In this document: positions 1 to 10,178 of the stretch, piece after piece
Layout of the letters: the number at the start of each line of letters is the position of its first letter
Numbering within the stretch: the first letter of the stretch is position 1
IMG/VR virus record: IMGVR_UViG_2896601577_000007
From: a virus
Taxonomy: Duplodnaviria; Heunggongvirae; Uroviricota; Caudoviricetes
Length of the DNA stretch: 11,888 bases
Strand: one strand, 5' to 3'
Notes under the pieces: model-generated
The model's input: the letters and a program-made list of their open reading frames with translations, nothing else
Told to the model about the DNA's origin: nothing
Database searches by the model: none
Made by a program: the position numbers and the translations under genes

Positions 1-519
1 TCATCGGTTCGTCTGAGAATGACGTGCAACTGCGCACGCGACACCCGGAGACAACGGCTGACTAAGCTTACTCCCCATCCCGGGCAATAAGGGCGCGTGC
101 GCTATCCACTTTTTTGCCCGTCCATATTCAACGGCTTCTTTGAGGAGTTCATTTTCCATCGTTTTCTTGCCGAGCAGGCGCTGGAGTTCTTTAATCTGCT
201 TCATGGCGGCAGCAAGTTCAGAGGCAGGAACAACCTGTTCTCCGGCGGCCACAGCAGTAAGACTTCCTTCCTGGTATTGCTTACGCCAGAGAAATAACTG
301 GCTGCTACACCATGTTGCCGGGCAACGAGGGAGACCGTCATCCCCGGTTCAAAGCTCTGCTGAACAATTGCGATCTTTTCCTGTGTGGTACGCCGTCTGC
401 GTTTCTCCGGCCCTAAGACATCAATCATCTGTACTCCAATGACTAGTCTAAAAACTAGTATTAAGACTATCACTTATTTAAGTGATACTGGTTGTCTGGA
501 GATTCAGGGGGCCAGTCTA
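1..519 (-). mobile_element. IS2 (IS3 family), partial copy: left end with terminal inverted repeat and insC/start of insD; the remainder lies beyond the window's left edge
   Basis: Reverse complement of 421..519 matches the IS2 left terminus as I recall it (TAGACTGGCCCCCTGAATCTCCAGACAACC...), ending at 519. Minus-strand ORFs carry InsC sequence ([44 protein letters not shown] and [57 protein letters not shown]) and an InsD segment ([27 protein letters not shown]). A6G slippery motif is present on the minus strand near 108..116. Confidence 0.9.
68..428 (-). pseudogene. insC: IS2 orfA (insC) remnant, reading frame broken
   Basis: The N-terminal 44 aa of InsC sit in the frame of ORF 201..473 and the remaining InsC sequence in the frame of ORF 1..252; the two frames switch near 297..300. 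ATG at 428. Confidence 0.7.
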
Positions 520-736
520 CATCCCACCATTTCAGGGCAATCAGCGCCTCAGCACGGGAAAGGGATATTCTCTGTATATCAGCATCCTCCCCACCAGCCA
601 CCCGGTATACCTCTGATAAATCACGAACATTTTTCATGTCTGCTTTCCCGGACGTTTCCATCAGTGCGTTAATATCATCCCCGTATAGCGTGATTGCGCG
701 ACGATACCAGCCAGAGAGATAACCATAGCCCGGCAT
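520..736 (-). CDS. 3' portion of the FtsH-like peptidase-domain gene, cut off by the IS2 end
   Basis: 72 codons of open frame run directly into the IS2 terminus at 519/520; the last 16 aa of the track ORF 470..736 are encoded by IS2 sequence. This frame is open upstream to 763 and overlaps the 661..1020 ORF. Confidence 0.45.
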
Positions 737-1020
737 ACCTGGTCTATCAGACGTAACCTGGTGTCATCATTCGAGAGGGTGTAAGACTTAACCTCAGCCA
801 CATTCCGTGGATAGTTGGCGTGCCATACCGCGACAGCTCCACATTCATCAACATCGCCGCTAAGGTAGGTTTTTGCCACTCGGTTATTACCCGATAACGC
901 AATTTCTACCTCCTGTATGCCGAAAAACCATGCGGCTATCGCATGACCTGCTTCATGTATTGCAAGATGTCTGGGCCAGCGATAGCTGCCGAACTCAATA
1001 ATGATGGGTTGCGTACTCAT
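661..1020 (-). CDS. Zn-metallopeptidase-like protein, FtsH/M41-type domain (HEAGH motif), possibly frameshifted
   Basis: LAIHEAGHAIAAWFFG followed by SLAGIVAQSRYTG resembles the FtsH protease-domain pattern (HEaGHA ... GGRaAE ... TG..DI). Internal ATG at 1020 is preceded by GAGGGA; the track ORF extends to 1098 without a Shine-Dalgarno sequence. Confidence 0.6.
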   Translation of the reverse strand: MSTQPIIIEFGSYRWPRHLAIHEAGHAIAAWFFGIQEVEIALSGNNRVAKTYLSGDVDECGAVAVWHANYPRNVAEVKSYTLSNDDTRLRLIDQVCRAMVISLAGIVAQSRYTGMILTH

Positions 1021-1030
1021 ATCTTCCCTC

Positions 1031-1465
1031 TCAGAATGGCGTTTCATTGTCGAATGGTGGGCGTTGGTCGTATTCATCACGGGATGGCTGCTGCGCACGT
1101 CTCAGCGCGTCCGTTGCCTGTCCCCGCTGTCCTGCCTTCCCGCCGGGGCGTACCGTTCTGGCGCTGATCACACTGTCGGCTACTACCTGATACCCCTGCT
1201 GTGTACCGCCGTCCTGCCCTGTCCACTGGTTGAGTTGCATATTGCCTGCCACGCTCACAAGGTCGCCTTTCTGGTGCTTTGCCAGCGCATCGGCCTGCTT
1301 CCCAAAAGCAATAACGCCCAGCCAGAAGGTTGACTCTCCCGCCTCTGCCGCATTACAGGGGAGAGACACCGCCAGCCGCGCCATAGCCATGTTGTTACCG
1401 TTCGTTGTGGTGCGGGTCTGGGGATCTGCCACCAGCCGCCCGTATGCTGAAATTTGTGCTGTCAT
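1031..1465 (-). CDS. ssb: Single-stranded DNA-binding protein-like (OB fold, acidic PF tail)
   Basis: 144 aa; OB-fold-like pattern (RLVADPQTR...NG...ARLAVSL...FWLGVIAFGKQADALAKHQKGDLVSVAGNMQLNQWTGQDGG..YQVVAD) and C-terminal ...PPFDNETPF similar to the SSB DDDIPF tail. GAGGGG Shine-Dalgarno sequence upstream of ATG at 1465. Confidence 0.65.
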   Translation of the reverse strand: MTAQISAYGRLVADPQTRTTTNGNNMAMARLAVSLPCNAAEAGESTFWLGVIAFGKQADALAKHQKGDLVSVAGNMQLNQWTGQDGGTQQGYQVVADSVISARTVRPGGKAGQRGQATDALRRAQQPSRDEYDQRPPFDNETPF

Positions 1466-1839: not shown

Positions 1840-2289
1840 TTATTCTTCTGGCTGGCTGCTTTCCTCTGCCATGAAATTGAGTACATAGACGCGAATCTGT
1901 CGCCCATCCTCCCTTACTCGCCCCTGATAGCCTCGCCCGCTCGTTGGTGGTGTAAGCATTCCTGCATTCTTTAGAACTTCGGCAAACTGTTTGGTATTGA
2001 AGCCCTTTGCAATCTCCTGCTCAAACGCTGCCGGGAAGGTGTAGAAAATTATCGGGTCGCCGTCGTGGTTCCCCTTCTTCCTGTACCCGGCTAAATCACG
2101 GATGGGTAAATCGCGCGGGTCATAACCCAGCGGCGCGAATCGACTCAGCCCATAGGCATTCAAAAACGCCTCCGTCTGCTCAATAATCTGCTGGTGCTCT
2201 TTGTTCCCCGTGCCGAACTCACGCAACCACGCATTGTAGCTGTGCTGTATCGCATCACGGCACGTTTGATCATCCCAGCCAGTAACCAC
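1840..2289 (-). CDS. Primase/helicase C-terminal fragment (third frame segment)
   Basis: GTG-initiated track ORF with no convincing Shine-Dalgarno sequence; its frame is open upstream to about 2394, overlapping the end of the 2334..3890 ORF. Confidence 0.55.
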   Translation of the reverse strand: MVTGWDDQTCRDAIQHSYNAWLREFGTGNKEHQQIIEQTEAFLNAYGLSRFAPLGYDPRDLPIRDLAGYRKKGNHDGDPIIFYTFPAAFEQEIAKGFNTKQFAEVLKNAGMLTPPTSGRGYQGRVREDGRQIRVYVLNFMAEESSQPEE

Positions 2290-2333
2290 GCCACCCAGCA
2301 GTAAAGCAGCCTCCAGAATGGCGAACCTTGCCC

Positions 2334-3890
2334 CTACACGGTGAACCTGTTCCCATAGTCGGCAGGAATAAGACTGCGCCAGCGGGCTTCACAGTCACGA
2401 ACGGTATCAATGGCCTGCTGCTGGTGGCCTGCAAGCCATCTGATCCACTCCCGCCCGGCAGCGCCGTGATTGCTCTGCCACGCGGATTTTAATGCGTCTG
2501 CATGGTCTTTCCCTGTCTGGTGCTCATGAAAGCGCACCGCCTTACTTAACGGGATATTCAGCAGGCGCACCAGTTGCCCCGCTTTTGTCTTGCGTCCTGC
2601 GGAGGCAATGAACGTTTCTAAATCCATTTCCCCGGTGCTGATTGCCACGGTACGCCAGCGTTTTAGATCCCGATTTCCGCCTTCTTTCGCGCCCTGCAAT
2701 TTCCCTACGCCGTTAAACAGGGCATAGGCAGACTGAGAAACGCTTATCGGGTCTGCGCCCTGTCCGACTTCATCCAGCGGCATCAGTCCGTCATTGTGGG
2801 CGGCGGCCTCGTTTATCATCCCCAGCGCCGTCCCGTACCACGTCAGGCGCAAGGCATCAGGGTTCCCGTATAGACTGCTAGCCACGTTCTGCGTGGTTGT
2901 TTTCCCGGCGCTCGATTGCTCATAAAAATGAATCCCGAATCCGTCACGCTCTGCCACCCCGATTAATGGCGCTGCCAGTGCTGCGGCAATGCCTGTCATC
3001 ATCGCGTAGTTGCCGTATGCCAGCCGCGCGACACTGTTGCGCCAGCTTTCCGGCGTTCCTGCTACGGTATACCCGGCAGCGGCTGAACTGCGCCCGCTGA
3101 ACAAAACAGGCCGCTCAGGTGTGCCGATGATTTCCCCGTCCGGCATGATGTATGCCCCGCACTGCCAGCCTGTAGCATGAGCAACGCGCCACAATTCACG
3201 CGAGCCGCTCCGCTGTAGCCAGTCGGCAAGGATCGCCCGTAAACTGCTTTTGGTCGTGACGTTAACCCCACCAGCTTTCAGGGTGCGCCAGCCTTCACGC
3301 TCGCCAATATCAGCCAGCGGGATAGCCGCTGTTGTCGGTATGCCTGCACCGAATGCCAGCCATGAGATAATAAGATACTGATCTTTGTCGTCGCGTCCCG
3401 TGCCGATAACCTCCAACGGGGAACATAACCAGCTTTCAGCGTTGACGATCTCCCCGCTTTCCTTGTCCACCTTCGGCGTTACCCAGAAAACGCCATCTTT
3501 GCGGCTCTCAATGTGGGGTTTTAGTGGATCTTTCTCTGGATGGTCAGTTTTACCGCCCTCAATGGCTTGCAATCGCGGTTTCACGGCTTCCCCTTGAATC
3601 TGGTACATCGAATCGTTAAACGCAGCCGTAGCGACTTCCAGCCCGTTTTGCTGGCGGTAATCGTCCCAGTCGGCTTTGTAGTCTGTCGGCGGCAGCGCCA
3701 CCCAGCCAGCCACGGATAAGGCGGCTTTCTCTGCGGCATCTTTGCCCGTGTTCGCCTGGTCGTCCTGCTGGTGGTCGTTATCTGCGGCAATGATAATCTG
3801 CGTGGCTGGATATATCCGGCGCATCACTTCGGCAACGGGTAGCAGGTTGCCCGCGTCAATTGCTGCCACTGCCAGCGCGTCCGGGCGCAT
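2334..3890 (-). CDS. Primase/helicase central fragment: distal TOPRIM (DxD) plus P-loop region (DUF927-like)
   Basis: IIIAADNDHQ (TOPRIM DxD) 37 aa after the annotated Met, and a Walker-A-like SSAGKTTT. Its ATG overlaps the stop of the upstream fragment (TGATG). The frame upstream of the Met encodes LATALSVHL, which continues the TOPRIM motif. Confidence 0.85.
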   Translation of the reverse strand: MRPDALAVAAIDAGNLLPVAEVMRRIYPATQIIIAADNDHQQDDQANTGKDAAEKAALSVAGWVALPPTDYKADWDDYRQQNGLEVATAAFNDSMYQIQGEAVKPRLQAIEGGKTDHPEKDPLKPHIESRKDGVFWVTPKVDKESGEIVNAESWLCSPLEVIGTGRDDKDQYLIISWLAFGAGIPTTAAIPLADIGEREGWRTLKAGGVNVTTKSSLRAILADWLQRSGSRELWRVAHATGWQCGAYIMPDGEIIGTPERPVLFSGRSSAAAGYTVAGTPESWRNSVARLAYGNYAMMTGIAAALAAPLIGVAERDGFGIHFYEQSSAGKTTTQNVASSLYGNPDALRLTWYGTALGMINEAAAHNDGLMPLDEVGQGADPISVSQSAYALFNGVGKLQGAKEGGNRDLKRWRTVAISTGEMDLETFIASAGRKTKAGQLVRLLNIPLSKAVRFHEHQTGKDHADALKSAWQSNHGAAGREWIRWLAGHQQQAIDTVRDCEARWRSLIPADYGNRFTV

Positions 3891-4597
3891 CAGGTGAACT
3901 GAAAGGGCCGTCGCCAGCCCTCGGCAATTAAAACGCTCTGCGGCGATTCTGGCGCGTTTACGGCGTGATATGCCCCGCGCTTTGCTGAACCTGTCAGGAG
4001 TCGCTTCTCTCCCTGCGGTGTAATGGTTTGCGCTGCTGCCACTGCGCCGGATTCGTCCACCAGCTCCAGCAATAACGAACCATCCGGCATAACCGGATAG
4101 TTAAACCCGGTCAGCCCTTTTGATTGCAGGTAATCAGATTCGCCCTGTGTGGCACTCTGGCGCATTCCGGCATACAGATGGGCAAACGTAGCCCTTCGCT
4201 GCTCTGCGTCCTCTGCTGCCTGTTTCTGGCGCTCCTGCTCACGCTGCTGGCGGTCAGCTTCCAGTTGCTCTCTTCTATGGCTCGCTGCCGCCGGGTCGGT
4301 TTGCGCTGCCCGGTAATCAATACCCAGCACGTCAGCGGCAAGCTGTGCCGCCTCCGTGGTGTCGCAGTTGTTTACCCGCTTGATTAAATCCAGCCCGTCA
4401 CCAGCGCCACACTGGTTGCAGATAAAGCTACCGCGCCCGTTGTCGTCGAATCTGAAACGGTCTTTTCCACCACATGCAGGGCATGGAGAATGGCGGCGCG
4501 ATGAATCAGGCACGTCGATAGACAATTCAGCCAGCACATAAGGCCAGCGCCCTGCTGCGGCGCTGGTCACTTCGCGGATAAGGTCGATATTACGCAT
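3890..4597 (-). CDS. Primase N-terminal fragment: Zn-ribbon plus start of TOPRIM (catalytic Glu)
   Basis: CPACGGKDRFRFDDNGRGSFICNQCGAGDGLDLI is a P4 alpha-type primase zinc-binding motif; the fragment ends ...SVLIAEG then WRRPFQFT*. ATG at 4597 is preceded by AGGAGG; the track ORF extends to 4630. Confidence 0.85.
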   Translation of the reverse strand: MRNIDLIREVTSAAAGRWPYVLAELSIDVPDSSRRHSPCPACGGKDRFRFDDNGRGSFICNQCGAGDGLDLIKRVNNCDTTEAAQLAADVLGIDYRAAQTDPAAASHRREQLEADRQQREQERQKQAAEDAEQRRATFAHLYAGMRQSATQGESDYLQSKGLTGFNYPVMPDGSLLLELVDESGAVAAAQTITPQGEKRLLTGSAKRGAYHAVNAPESPQSVLIAEGWRRPFQFT

Positions 4598-6417: not shown

Positions 6418-6604
6418 GTGCCACCTCCATGCGGATACGACCAGCAAAAAAGCAGACGTGATCGCGCACCAGAGAACGGCGAGCATCGCGTTCAGACTCG
6501 GCAGCAATATGATGAATTTTGGCGGTAATTGTCGGGCAATCGCGGCGAACTGCGGCGATAATCCAGATAAATTGCGGTTTTTGGGTAGGGGTAGTAGCCA
6601 GCAT
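6410..6604 (-). CDS. Hypothetical small protein (64 aa), first gene of the small-gene operon
   Basis: ATG at 6604 with AAGGAGG (rc of 6613..6619) 8 nt upstream (MLATTPTQKPQFIWIIAAVRRD...). This is the 3' end of the track ORF 6410..7165, which I do not accept as a single CDS. Confidence 0.6.
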   Translation of the reverse strand: MLATTPTQKPQFIWIIAAVRRDCPTITAKIHHIAAESERDARRSLVRDHVCFFAGRIRMEVAHD

Positions 6605-9234: not shown

Positions 9235-9401
9235 CTACGGATATTTCGTGGAAGGCATGTTTTGTATAATCGAGAAAAAATAATAATTCGCACTTACGTC
9301 TAGTTCTCTTTTTCTGTGTGCGGGGCTGAATATGCGTGCGGGAGTGTCAATAGAATCAAGCCCTGCGATGTCGAGTATATAGGAGGCGTTAACATGCCAT
9401 A
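9235..9401 (-). pseudogene. 3' part of the integrase-proximal cargo gene interrupted by IS1
   Basis: Same reading frame as 10179..10473 once IS1 and one target-site duplication copy (777 nt) are removed; the reconstructed ORF is 153 aa. Confidence 0.6.
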
Positions 9402-9410
9402 GCCCAAGCA
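9402..9410. repeat. IS1 target-site duplication, left copy (GCCCAAGCA)
   Basis: Identical 9-mer directly flanks both IS1 ends. Confidence 0.85.
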
Positions 9411-9465
9411 GGTAATGCTGCCAACTTACTGATTTAGTGTATGATGGTGATTTTAAGGTGCTTGC

Positions 9466-9741
9466 GTGGCTTCCATTTCCATCAGATGTCCTTCCTGCTC
9501 CGCTACTGAAGGCGTGGTGCGTAACGGCAAAAGCACTGCCGGACATCAGCGCTATCTCTGCTCTCATTGCCGTAAAACATGGCAACTACAGTTCACTTAC
9601 ACCGCCTCTCAGCCCGGTACGCACCAGAAAATCATTGATATGGCCATGAATGGCGTCGGATGTCGCGCCAGTGCACGCATTATGGGCGTTGGCCTCAACA
9701 CGGTTTTACGTCACTTAAAAAACTCAGGCCGCAGTCGGTAA
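9466..9741 (+). CDS. insA: IS1 InsA (91 aa, GTG start)
   Basis: [66 protein letters not shown]... closely matches IS1 InsA. Confidence 0.9.
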
Positions 9742-10163
9742 CCTCGCGCATACAACCGGGCAGTGATGTGATTGTCTGCGCTGAAATGGACGAACAGTGG
9801 GGCTACGTCGGTGCTAAATCACGTCAGCGCTGGCTGTTTTACGCGTATGACAGGATACGGAGGAGGGTTGTGGCGCACGTCTTCGGTGAACGCACTCTGG
9901 CCACACTGGAGCGTCTTCTGAGCCTGCTGTCGGCCTTTGAGGTCGTGGTATGGATGACGGATGGCTGGCCGCTGTATGAATCACGCCTGAAGGGAAAGCT
10001 GCACGTTATCAGCAAGCGTTACACTCAGCGCATTGAGCGACATAATCTGAATCTGAGACAACATCTGGCAAGGCTGGGACGGAAGTCACTGTCGTTCTCA
10101 AAATCGGTGGAGCTGCATGACAAGGTCATCGGGCATTATCTGAACATAAAACACTATCAGTAA
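9660..10163 (+). CDS. insB: IS1 InsB (167 aa), transposase catalytic part
   Basis: ...[58 protein letters not shown]...[13 protein letters not shown] matches IS1 InsB with several substitutions. Confidence 0.9.
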
Positions 10164-10178
10164 GTTGGAGTCATTACC

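Follow-up and report, generated by a model that had tools for sequence, protein, structure and literature searches.

Small ATP-independent HEXXH proteases encoded on mobile elements include the ImmA/IrrE-type (M78) anti-repressors of ICEs and phages and the ArdC domain of conjugative plasmids. Each of them targets a single specific regulator or defence factor, and ArdC has a link to ssDNA binding. Family M41 (MEROPS M41; PF01434) is defined by an HExxH motif plus a downstream Asp ligand (PMC5939537). FtsH, which belongs to this family, is the product of a housekeeping gene and combines its protease domain with AAA+ ATPase, transmembrane, and periplasmic parts. The protease domain (e.g., Aquifex 2di4 and Arabidopsis FTSH12 in 8xkv) has the HEXXH motif on its first helix, a downstream invariant Asp in a T-x-G-x-x-D-hydrophobic segment, and a C-terminal helical bundle (FtsH 548-597). 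Short stand-alone proteins labelled "Peptidase M41 domain-containing" are also found in phages and metagenomes (BFVD A0A6J5RJ76, 214 aa; P0088 and P0093), encoded on mobile or viral DNA beside a D5_N primase and an AlpA-like HTH protein, or beside an integrase. A search of the literature on stand-alone M41 proteins in phages and satellites, and on chromosome CP026867, returned nothing relevant.

Here, we describe the remnant of a gene of this kind in a stretch of viral DNA of 11,888 nucleotides (record IMGVR_UViG_2896601577_000007, Caudoviricetes; referred to here as the window), the source of which is the Shigella boydii-type chromosome CP026867.1 (assembly GCA_002949895.1). We are fairly confident that the remnant is the 5' part of a soluble stand-alone M41-like peptidase gene, that an IS2 insertion is the lesion that inactivated it, and that the frame shift within it is likely a homopolymer under-call. 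The window gene is an ordinary IS-disrupted gene in a decaying Shigella island, and the peptidase family to which it belongs is uncharacterised.

The protein encoded by the intact gene shares the three features of the FtsH protease domain listed above, and it differs from FtsH in having just 213 residues, no AAA+ ATPase, transmembrane, or periplasmic part, and about seven additional residues between the LAG..AQ helix and the Asp segment. It is also too diverged for the Pfam cutoff and is encoded on a mobile island, whereas FtsH is a housekeeping protein. With the short phage and metagenome proteins it shares the size class, the catalytic residues, and the type of genomic neighborhood; however, identity to them is only 13 to 30%, and several of them pass the Pfam M41 threshold alone, which the enterobacterial family fails to do.

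A peptidase gene interrupted by IS2

The gene lies on the minus strand, between an IS2 copy and the SSB gene of the island. The features of the region are as follows.

1..519, minus strand: left 519 bp of an IS2 copy, with the terminal inverted repeat ending at 519 and the 5' part of the orfA transposase gene (the window begins inside the element)
470..472, minus strand: stop codon within IS2 that closes the read-through frame (from the sequence)
520..524, no strand assigned: 5-bp target-site repeat, GGATG when read on the coding strand; its duplicate is outside the window, past the other IS2 end
520..1020, minus strand: remnant of the stand-alone M41-like zinc peptidase gene, codons 1 to 167 of 213, with the ATG at 1020-1018 (from alignment with intact 642-bp orthologues)
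638..640, minus strand: codon of D128 (in TSGKADM), situated 3' of the frame change; D128 is invariant in alignments and is predicted to be the third ligand of the zinc
661..663, minus strand: premature TGA of the shifted frame, after ...YTGMILTH (from the sequence)
679..682, no strand assigned: run of four C residues (G4 on the coding strand), versus C5/G5 in all relatives, i.e., the 1-nt deficit and frame change at codon 114/115 (S. boydii CDC 3083-94 has the extra G, as do five outgroup loci)
943..957, minus strand: codons of the HEXXH zinc-binding and catalytic motif, H22-E23-A-G-H26 (read from the sequence)
1031..1465, minus strand: island SSB gene, the conserved upstream neighbor, separated from the peptidase gene by a 10-bp spacer (from orthologous-locus annotation and Pfam SSB labels)

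The remnant is read in two overlapping frames. The minus-strand ORF 1020..661 begins with MSTQP, reads MSTQPIIIEFGSYRWPRHLAIHEAGHAIAAW, and terminates with AQSRYTGMILTH before its stop codon; the overlapping minus-strand frame 736..520 includes GDDINALMETSGKADMKNV and YGDDINALMETSGKADMKNVRDL, reaches KWWDV, and continues into IS2. Both frames, the former with its HEAGH motif, had been recognized in a preliminary description of this DNA and are present in the sequence. When aligned with four intact Escherichia coli orthologues, the window is exactly one G short in a coding-strand GGGGG run, and the similarity extends as far as the IS2 junction, which follows codon 167 of 213; the remnant amounts to the 5' 78% of the gene. 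Addition of one G results in 167 codons, the translation of which is identical to E. coli WP_095784789 at 167 of 167 positions, which implies homology and not chance resemblance. The proposal that one extra C in the C-run rejoins the frames thus agrees with the orthologue alignment, except that the run is located at 679-682 and not at 677-680, a slip of 2 nt. The deficit separates HEAGH from D128. An exact-sequence look-up with the 119-aa ORF identified CP026867.1 as the source.

The IS2 end was placed at 519/520 because three unrelated IS2 copies agree up to GGCCAGTCTA and differ directly after it. Positions 1 to 519 are 99% identical to standard IS2, and the full element in the source chromosome (locus L013) is 1,326 bp. 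It resembles IS2 (IS3 family) in its terminal sequence, which is identical to that of other IS2 copies, its 5-bp target duplication, and its size (about 1.33 kb for the described element), and it differs from the standard form in orfA, which is not intact as a result of a 4-bp deletion (297/298, in a CTGG repeat) and a 1-bp deletion (78/79, in a C-run). The 4-bp deletion allele also occurs in IS2 copies of other E. coli genomes, in S. boydii CDC 3083-94 the copy at this site is undeleted, and the 1-bp deletion may be another homopolymer error.

GGATG is present at both ends of the element (L013 8497-8501 and 9828-9832) and occurs only once in L001, the E. coli locus in which the gene is uninterrupted. 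The missing 140 bp of the peptidase gene, followed by the next gene, sit directly past the other IS2 end in the source chromosome, so that the last 46 codons are intact 1.3 kb away. In-silico repair (i.e., removal of IS2 and one GGATG and addition of one G) yielded a complete 213-codon ORF. The IS2 copy is a recent simple insertion after codon 167, with duplication of GGATG. Interruption of the gene by IS2 at 519/520 was inferred correctly from the window, the junction being fixed both by the IS2 copies and by the end of the orthologue similarity; as for the 3' end of the gene, which had been described as removed or displaced, the suggested inspection of the sequence beyond the other IS2 end revealed the second GGATG and the 3' gene piece, so the end was displaced and not removed.

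The displaced codons include the invariant IALAKILENR helix, and the A170-R178 block past the junction is invariant in the family alignment. IS2 takes away this most conserved C-terminal block, and the gene is a pseudogene; the insertion is its real inactivating lesion.

Origin of the frame change

A look-up with an IS1-adjacent ORF of the window hit CP001063.1, the sequence record of Shigella boydii CDC 3083-94 (PMC2974192). This strain contains the same island, with IS1 and IS2 at the same sites, at 99.8 to 99.9% identity to the window. It has GGGGG at the site of the frame change and an open frame, and the peptidase is called there as one 192-codon ORF that runs into IS2. All five of the single-base length differences between the window and CDC 3083-94 are deletions in the window within runs of 4 to 7 bases (plus coordinates ~4709, ~3920, ~2354, 679-682, and ~9280). 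Runs of at least 4 bases account for just 6.4% of the window. Relatives in E. coli that are ≥99% identical are likewise free of these homopolymer deletions. Polarized by outgroups where possible, the changes comprised 2 substitutions and 3 deletions on the window branch, versus 3 substitutions and no indel on the sister branch.

One-sided deletions confined to homopolymers are typical of consensus errors in long-read assemblies. Because the deletions in the window resemble such errors, we consider that the 1-nt deficit is probably a homopolymer under-call in the CP026867.1 assembly and not a real feature of the organism, a reading that derives from sequence comparison. The earlier statement that the gene is split by a -1 frame change therefore holds for the deposited sequence, in which the base is missing, and probably does not hold for the organism, given the unshifted frame of CDC 3083-94.

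It is rather unlikely that the deletion is a genuine mutation of the strain, either as a second hit after IS2 or as a first hit with IS2 arriving later. The base is absent from the deposited chromosome, homopolymers are favored sites of natural frameshifts too, and Shigella genomes gather pseudogenes, as exemplified by a real TGG-to-TGA change in the island primase gene of the sister strain. The GGGG allele is also present in two other public assemblies (P0021; contigs L011 and L012). We did not accept these as independent support for a real frameshift, however, as L011 has five homopolymer deletions in 2.2 kb and both supporting contigs carry the same error signature as the window. A genuine deletion is further opposed by the restriction of all five differences to homopolymers on the window side and by the GGGGG of CDC 3083-94, which has the same IS2, so that the deletion would have to postdate the insertion; if real, it would be a very recent second lesion in an already dead gene. 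As the window does hold two overlapping ORFs, these might also be taken for separate genes, or for one gene joined by programmed -1 ribosomal frameshifting. We regard the probability of this as negligible: all of the examined full-length orthologues, from about ten genera, have one open frame, contrary to the prospect raised in the preliminary description of two separate genes in the relatives; the site, ACGGGGGAT, contains no slippery heptamer; and the sister strain is unshifted.

With the under-call as the preferred reading, the island primase gene (Zn-ribbon, Toprim_3, and DUF927; 1846-4597, minus strand) may be viewed in the same manner. Two G/C runs, at ~3920 and ~2354, have each lost 1 nt, which divides the gene into three reading frames, and these breaks are probably assembly errors because both deletions are absent from CDC 3083-94 and from the E. 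coli relatives. Elsewhere in the source chromosome, near the island end, a 1-nt deletion (CC to C; L013 12842-13054 versus L001 8837-9196) shortens a 119-aa reverse-strand gene to 70 aa, which is consistent with the same pattern of error or decay. An assembly with at least five homopolymer deletions in 12 kb calls for caution regarding data quality, and genes that appear frameshifted in it should be treated as biology only when reads support them.

Relation to the FtsH protease domain

Searches with the intact protein alone gave weak matches. In the plain Pfam search that had been proposed as a check, M41 (PF01434) fell below its gathering threshold (12.3 bits versus 29.9; E = 0.15), with a match covering residues 17 to 33, i.e., the HEAGH helix only. 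The best single Pfam hit, Peptidase_M50B (PF13398; E = 0.01; 16 bits versus 26), was also below threshold and extended over about 26 residues around HEXXH. No match above threshold was obtained with PHROGs, NCBIfam, or PADLOC. A narrow profile of 17 close sequences produced only noise against the PDB (FtsH, E = 1.7), and hhalign of the narrow family profile with E. coli FtsH aligned the HEAGH helix only.

The structural comparison pointed to FtsH. The AlphaFold model of the intact protein is a single domain (pLDDT, 82; pTM, 0.83). In a Foldseek search against the PDB, hits 1 to 49 consisted of FtsH-family chains and two chains of 5iqj; the top hits were FtsH-family chains aligned over 130 to 160 residues, the exception being 5iqj, an uncharacterised Vibrio cholerae protein. 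Against viral models, the first seven hits were M41/FtsH-family or unnamed proteins, the best of which was a 214-aa phage "Peptidase M41 domain-containing protein."

When 1.84 billion representative proteins were searched with a profile, only 61 were found at E ≤ 1e-3, mostly of 190 to 230 aa, and the close family consists of 23 clusters, chiefly from Enterobacterales. In an alignment of 36 diverse members, H22, E23, H26, G105, A108, D128, and A172 were invariant. Twelve of these 36 members reached Pfam M41 by themselves (best E, 1e-13), and an AAA domain was found in none. The widened 36-member profile matched FtsH structures with E values of 2e-10 to 5e-6, and it reached bona fide AAA+M41 FtsH at about 1e-12 (among 5.8 billion sequences). 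In the profile alignment with the Aquifex aeolicus protease domain 2di4, the family segment "etsgrsDm" pairs with "ttgaenDl" of FtsH. Given this pairing and the M41 definition, D128 is predicted to be the third zinc ligand. The counterpart of the FtsH TGASNDI region is accordingly T123-S-G-K-A-D128-M, about ten residues beyond the TG-DDI arrangement to which that role had been assigned. The C-terminal helices align with FtsH 548-597 (91% probability) independently of HEXXH. Since the narrow profile and the lone sequence both fail, the link to M41 depends on the predicted fold and on the profile widened with distant relatives; fold, catalytic residues, and profile chain agree with one another, in line with the initial designation of the gene as encoding an M41/FtsH-like peptidase.

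No AAA+ ATPase module (PF00004) was matched in the 213-aa protein, and no N-terminal transmembrane anchor was detected (maximum 19-residue Kyte-Doolittle mean, 1.49; no N-terminal extension). Because ATPase and membrane anchor are both absent, the protein is not an FtsH-type enzyme. The model and the profiles suggest that it derives from the FtsH protease domain and would work like it.

It is extremely unlikely that HEAGH is a chance motif in a protein unrelated to FtsH/M41, for example, a member of another HEXXH family such as M50B or M78/ImmA. M50B does rank ahead of M41 among the subthreshold Pfam matches and is also touched by 13 of the 36 relatives. However, its match is limited to the surroundings of HEXXH, M50B proteins are polytopic with HEXXH in a membrane helix whereas the island protein has no membrane segment, and the best fold hits, apart from 5iqj, are FtsH-family chains. 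Furthermore, both the Asp segment and the C-terminal helices match FtsH independently of HEXXH. Granted an M41-like peptidase, the IS2-truncated product, with 167 native residues and 15 IS2-encoded residues after the shared junction Val, might still be a peptidase or have taken on a new role. HEAGH and D128 lie upstream of the junction, and the 192-codon ORF is called in CP001063. We nevertheless judge this very unlikely, since the 46 lost residues contain the invariant A170-R178, the most conserved block of the family, together with the three model helices that align with FtsH 548-597, and the window copy has a broken frame in addition.

Genomic context of the intact gene

Megablast of positions 520-1500 against complete E. 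coli genomes identified 26 genomes in which the SSB gene is followed by an uninterrupted 642-bp gene annotated as "hypothetical protein" (e.g., WP_095784789 in E. coli strain 19-5); the preliminary description had proposed a search for such intact homologues in related islands. Strain ECONIH4 is another in which the island gene is intact. The conserved order is primase (Zn-ribbon, Toprim, and DUF927), SSB, at times one extra gene, and then the peptidase. It was observed in E. coli, Dickeya, Serratia, Pectobacterium, and a contig labelled Pseudomonas graminis, and the units lie within islands carrying AlpA, Ant/Bro-N, and DUF4222 genes. A search for related loci in species-representative genomes recovered two loci. 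Enterobacterial islands (Enterobacterales) of the integrase-AlpA-Ant-primase(DUF927)-SSB type regularly carry the gene, located after the SSB gene; thus, the position of an M41-like peptidase beside an SSB, first regarded as unusual, is the rule for the family in several genera. The distant relatives stand beside a D5-type primase with an AlpA-like HTH protein or beside an integrase.

The next gene downstream (L013 9969-10319; L001 7084-7434) overlaps the stop codon of the peptidase gene by 4 bp. Its 116-aa product has two cysteines and an N-terminus resembling a signal peptide, and Pfam, PHROGs, NCBIfam, and PADLOC gave no match above threshold for this protein. In Dickeya, Serratia, and Pectobacterium, it is replaced by an unrelated 356-aa protein without recognisable domains. 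The neighbors of 356, 331, 173, 130, and 189 aa had weak HTH hits only and no defence-system match.

Three criteria of P4-like satellites, i.e., an integrase, AlpA, and a P4-alpha-type primase, are present in the island according to Pfam labels and annotations, and no PHROG hit to psu-, sid-, or delta-like genes was found among the ten island ORFs scanned. That the island is a phage satellite is our guess.

Remnants of the peptidase gene that are 5' truncated or fused are common in E. coli assemblies (P0020, P0025, and L011/L012), examples being a 231-aa fusion protein and a C-terminal fragment of 115 aa that occurs on about 100 contigs. Loss of the gene seems to be frequent.

Putative function of the peptidase family

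In the predicted intact protein, H22, H26, and D128 would hold Zn2+ and E23 would activate water. Such a zinc endopeptidase, because it has no ATPase of its own, would be expected to have a specific cytoplasmic target that is accessible or unfolded, and cleavage may take place when the island replication operon is expressed or the island is induced. Candidate targets include a repressor, a defence protein, and a helper-phage factor; alternatively, the protein might coassemble with host FtsH.

The M78 ImmA/IrrE and ArdC proteases may serve as a working model, by analogy, for the island peptidase. They belong to other fold families, and no M78 or ArdC match was found for the island peptidase in Pfam, PHROGs, or fold searches; moreover, no adjacent repressor gene was identified next to it, in which it differs from ImmA/IrrE.

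It is conceivable, but on present grounds doubtful, that the intact 213-aa family represents an undescribed functional class, namely, an ATP-independent homologue of the FtsH protease domain that is expressed with island replication genes. If it does, the protein could cleave a host, helper-phage, or defence protein, or it could, by docking on host FtsH rings or by mixing with them, change how FtsH substrates (e.g., phage CII-type regulators) are turned over. The family is small and sparse, comprises AAA-less FtsH-like peptidases that travel with primase-SSB modules, and bears the RefSeq label "hypothetical." If a regulator of a phage or of the host proved to be their substrate, these peptidases would constitute a new tool in the contest of satellites or islands with phages. 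The broken Shigella copy adds nothing beyond pointing to the family and is itself of little import, being a dead gene with a common insertion sequence in an IS-rich Shigella genome.

Other features of the island

The interval that separates the primase gene from the SSB gene (1554-1813) contains ten exact copies of TGTTGTCTC on both strands, versus 0.05 expected by shuffling. These repeats look like an iteron array and are probably the replication origin of the island.

At window position 3288 (L022 ~17197), the primase gene reads TGG in the window and in E. coli and TGA in CDC 3083-94. The TGA is a genuine nonsense mutation, and the gene is uncalled in the latter strain. An IS1 copy is located at ~9400-10170 (InsA/InsB ORFs, 9466-10163), between the integrase-proximal genes and alpA, in the window and in CDC 3083-94 alike. 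CDC 3083-94 has an extra IS of about 1.25 kb (L022 12809-14059; HTH_Tnp_1 transposase) in an Ash/Icd-like gene, which is absent at ~6421-6424 of the window; because this element is present in one of the two only, the strains have diverged by IS activity.

The acidic tail of SSB normally binds partner proteins. The island SSB of the sister strain and of four E. coli relatives terminates with ...FDDETPF; the window (position 1048) has ...FDNETPF, a derived change.
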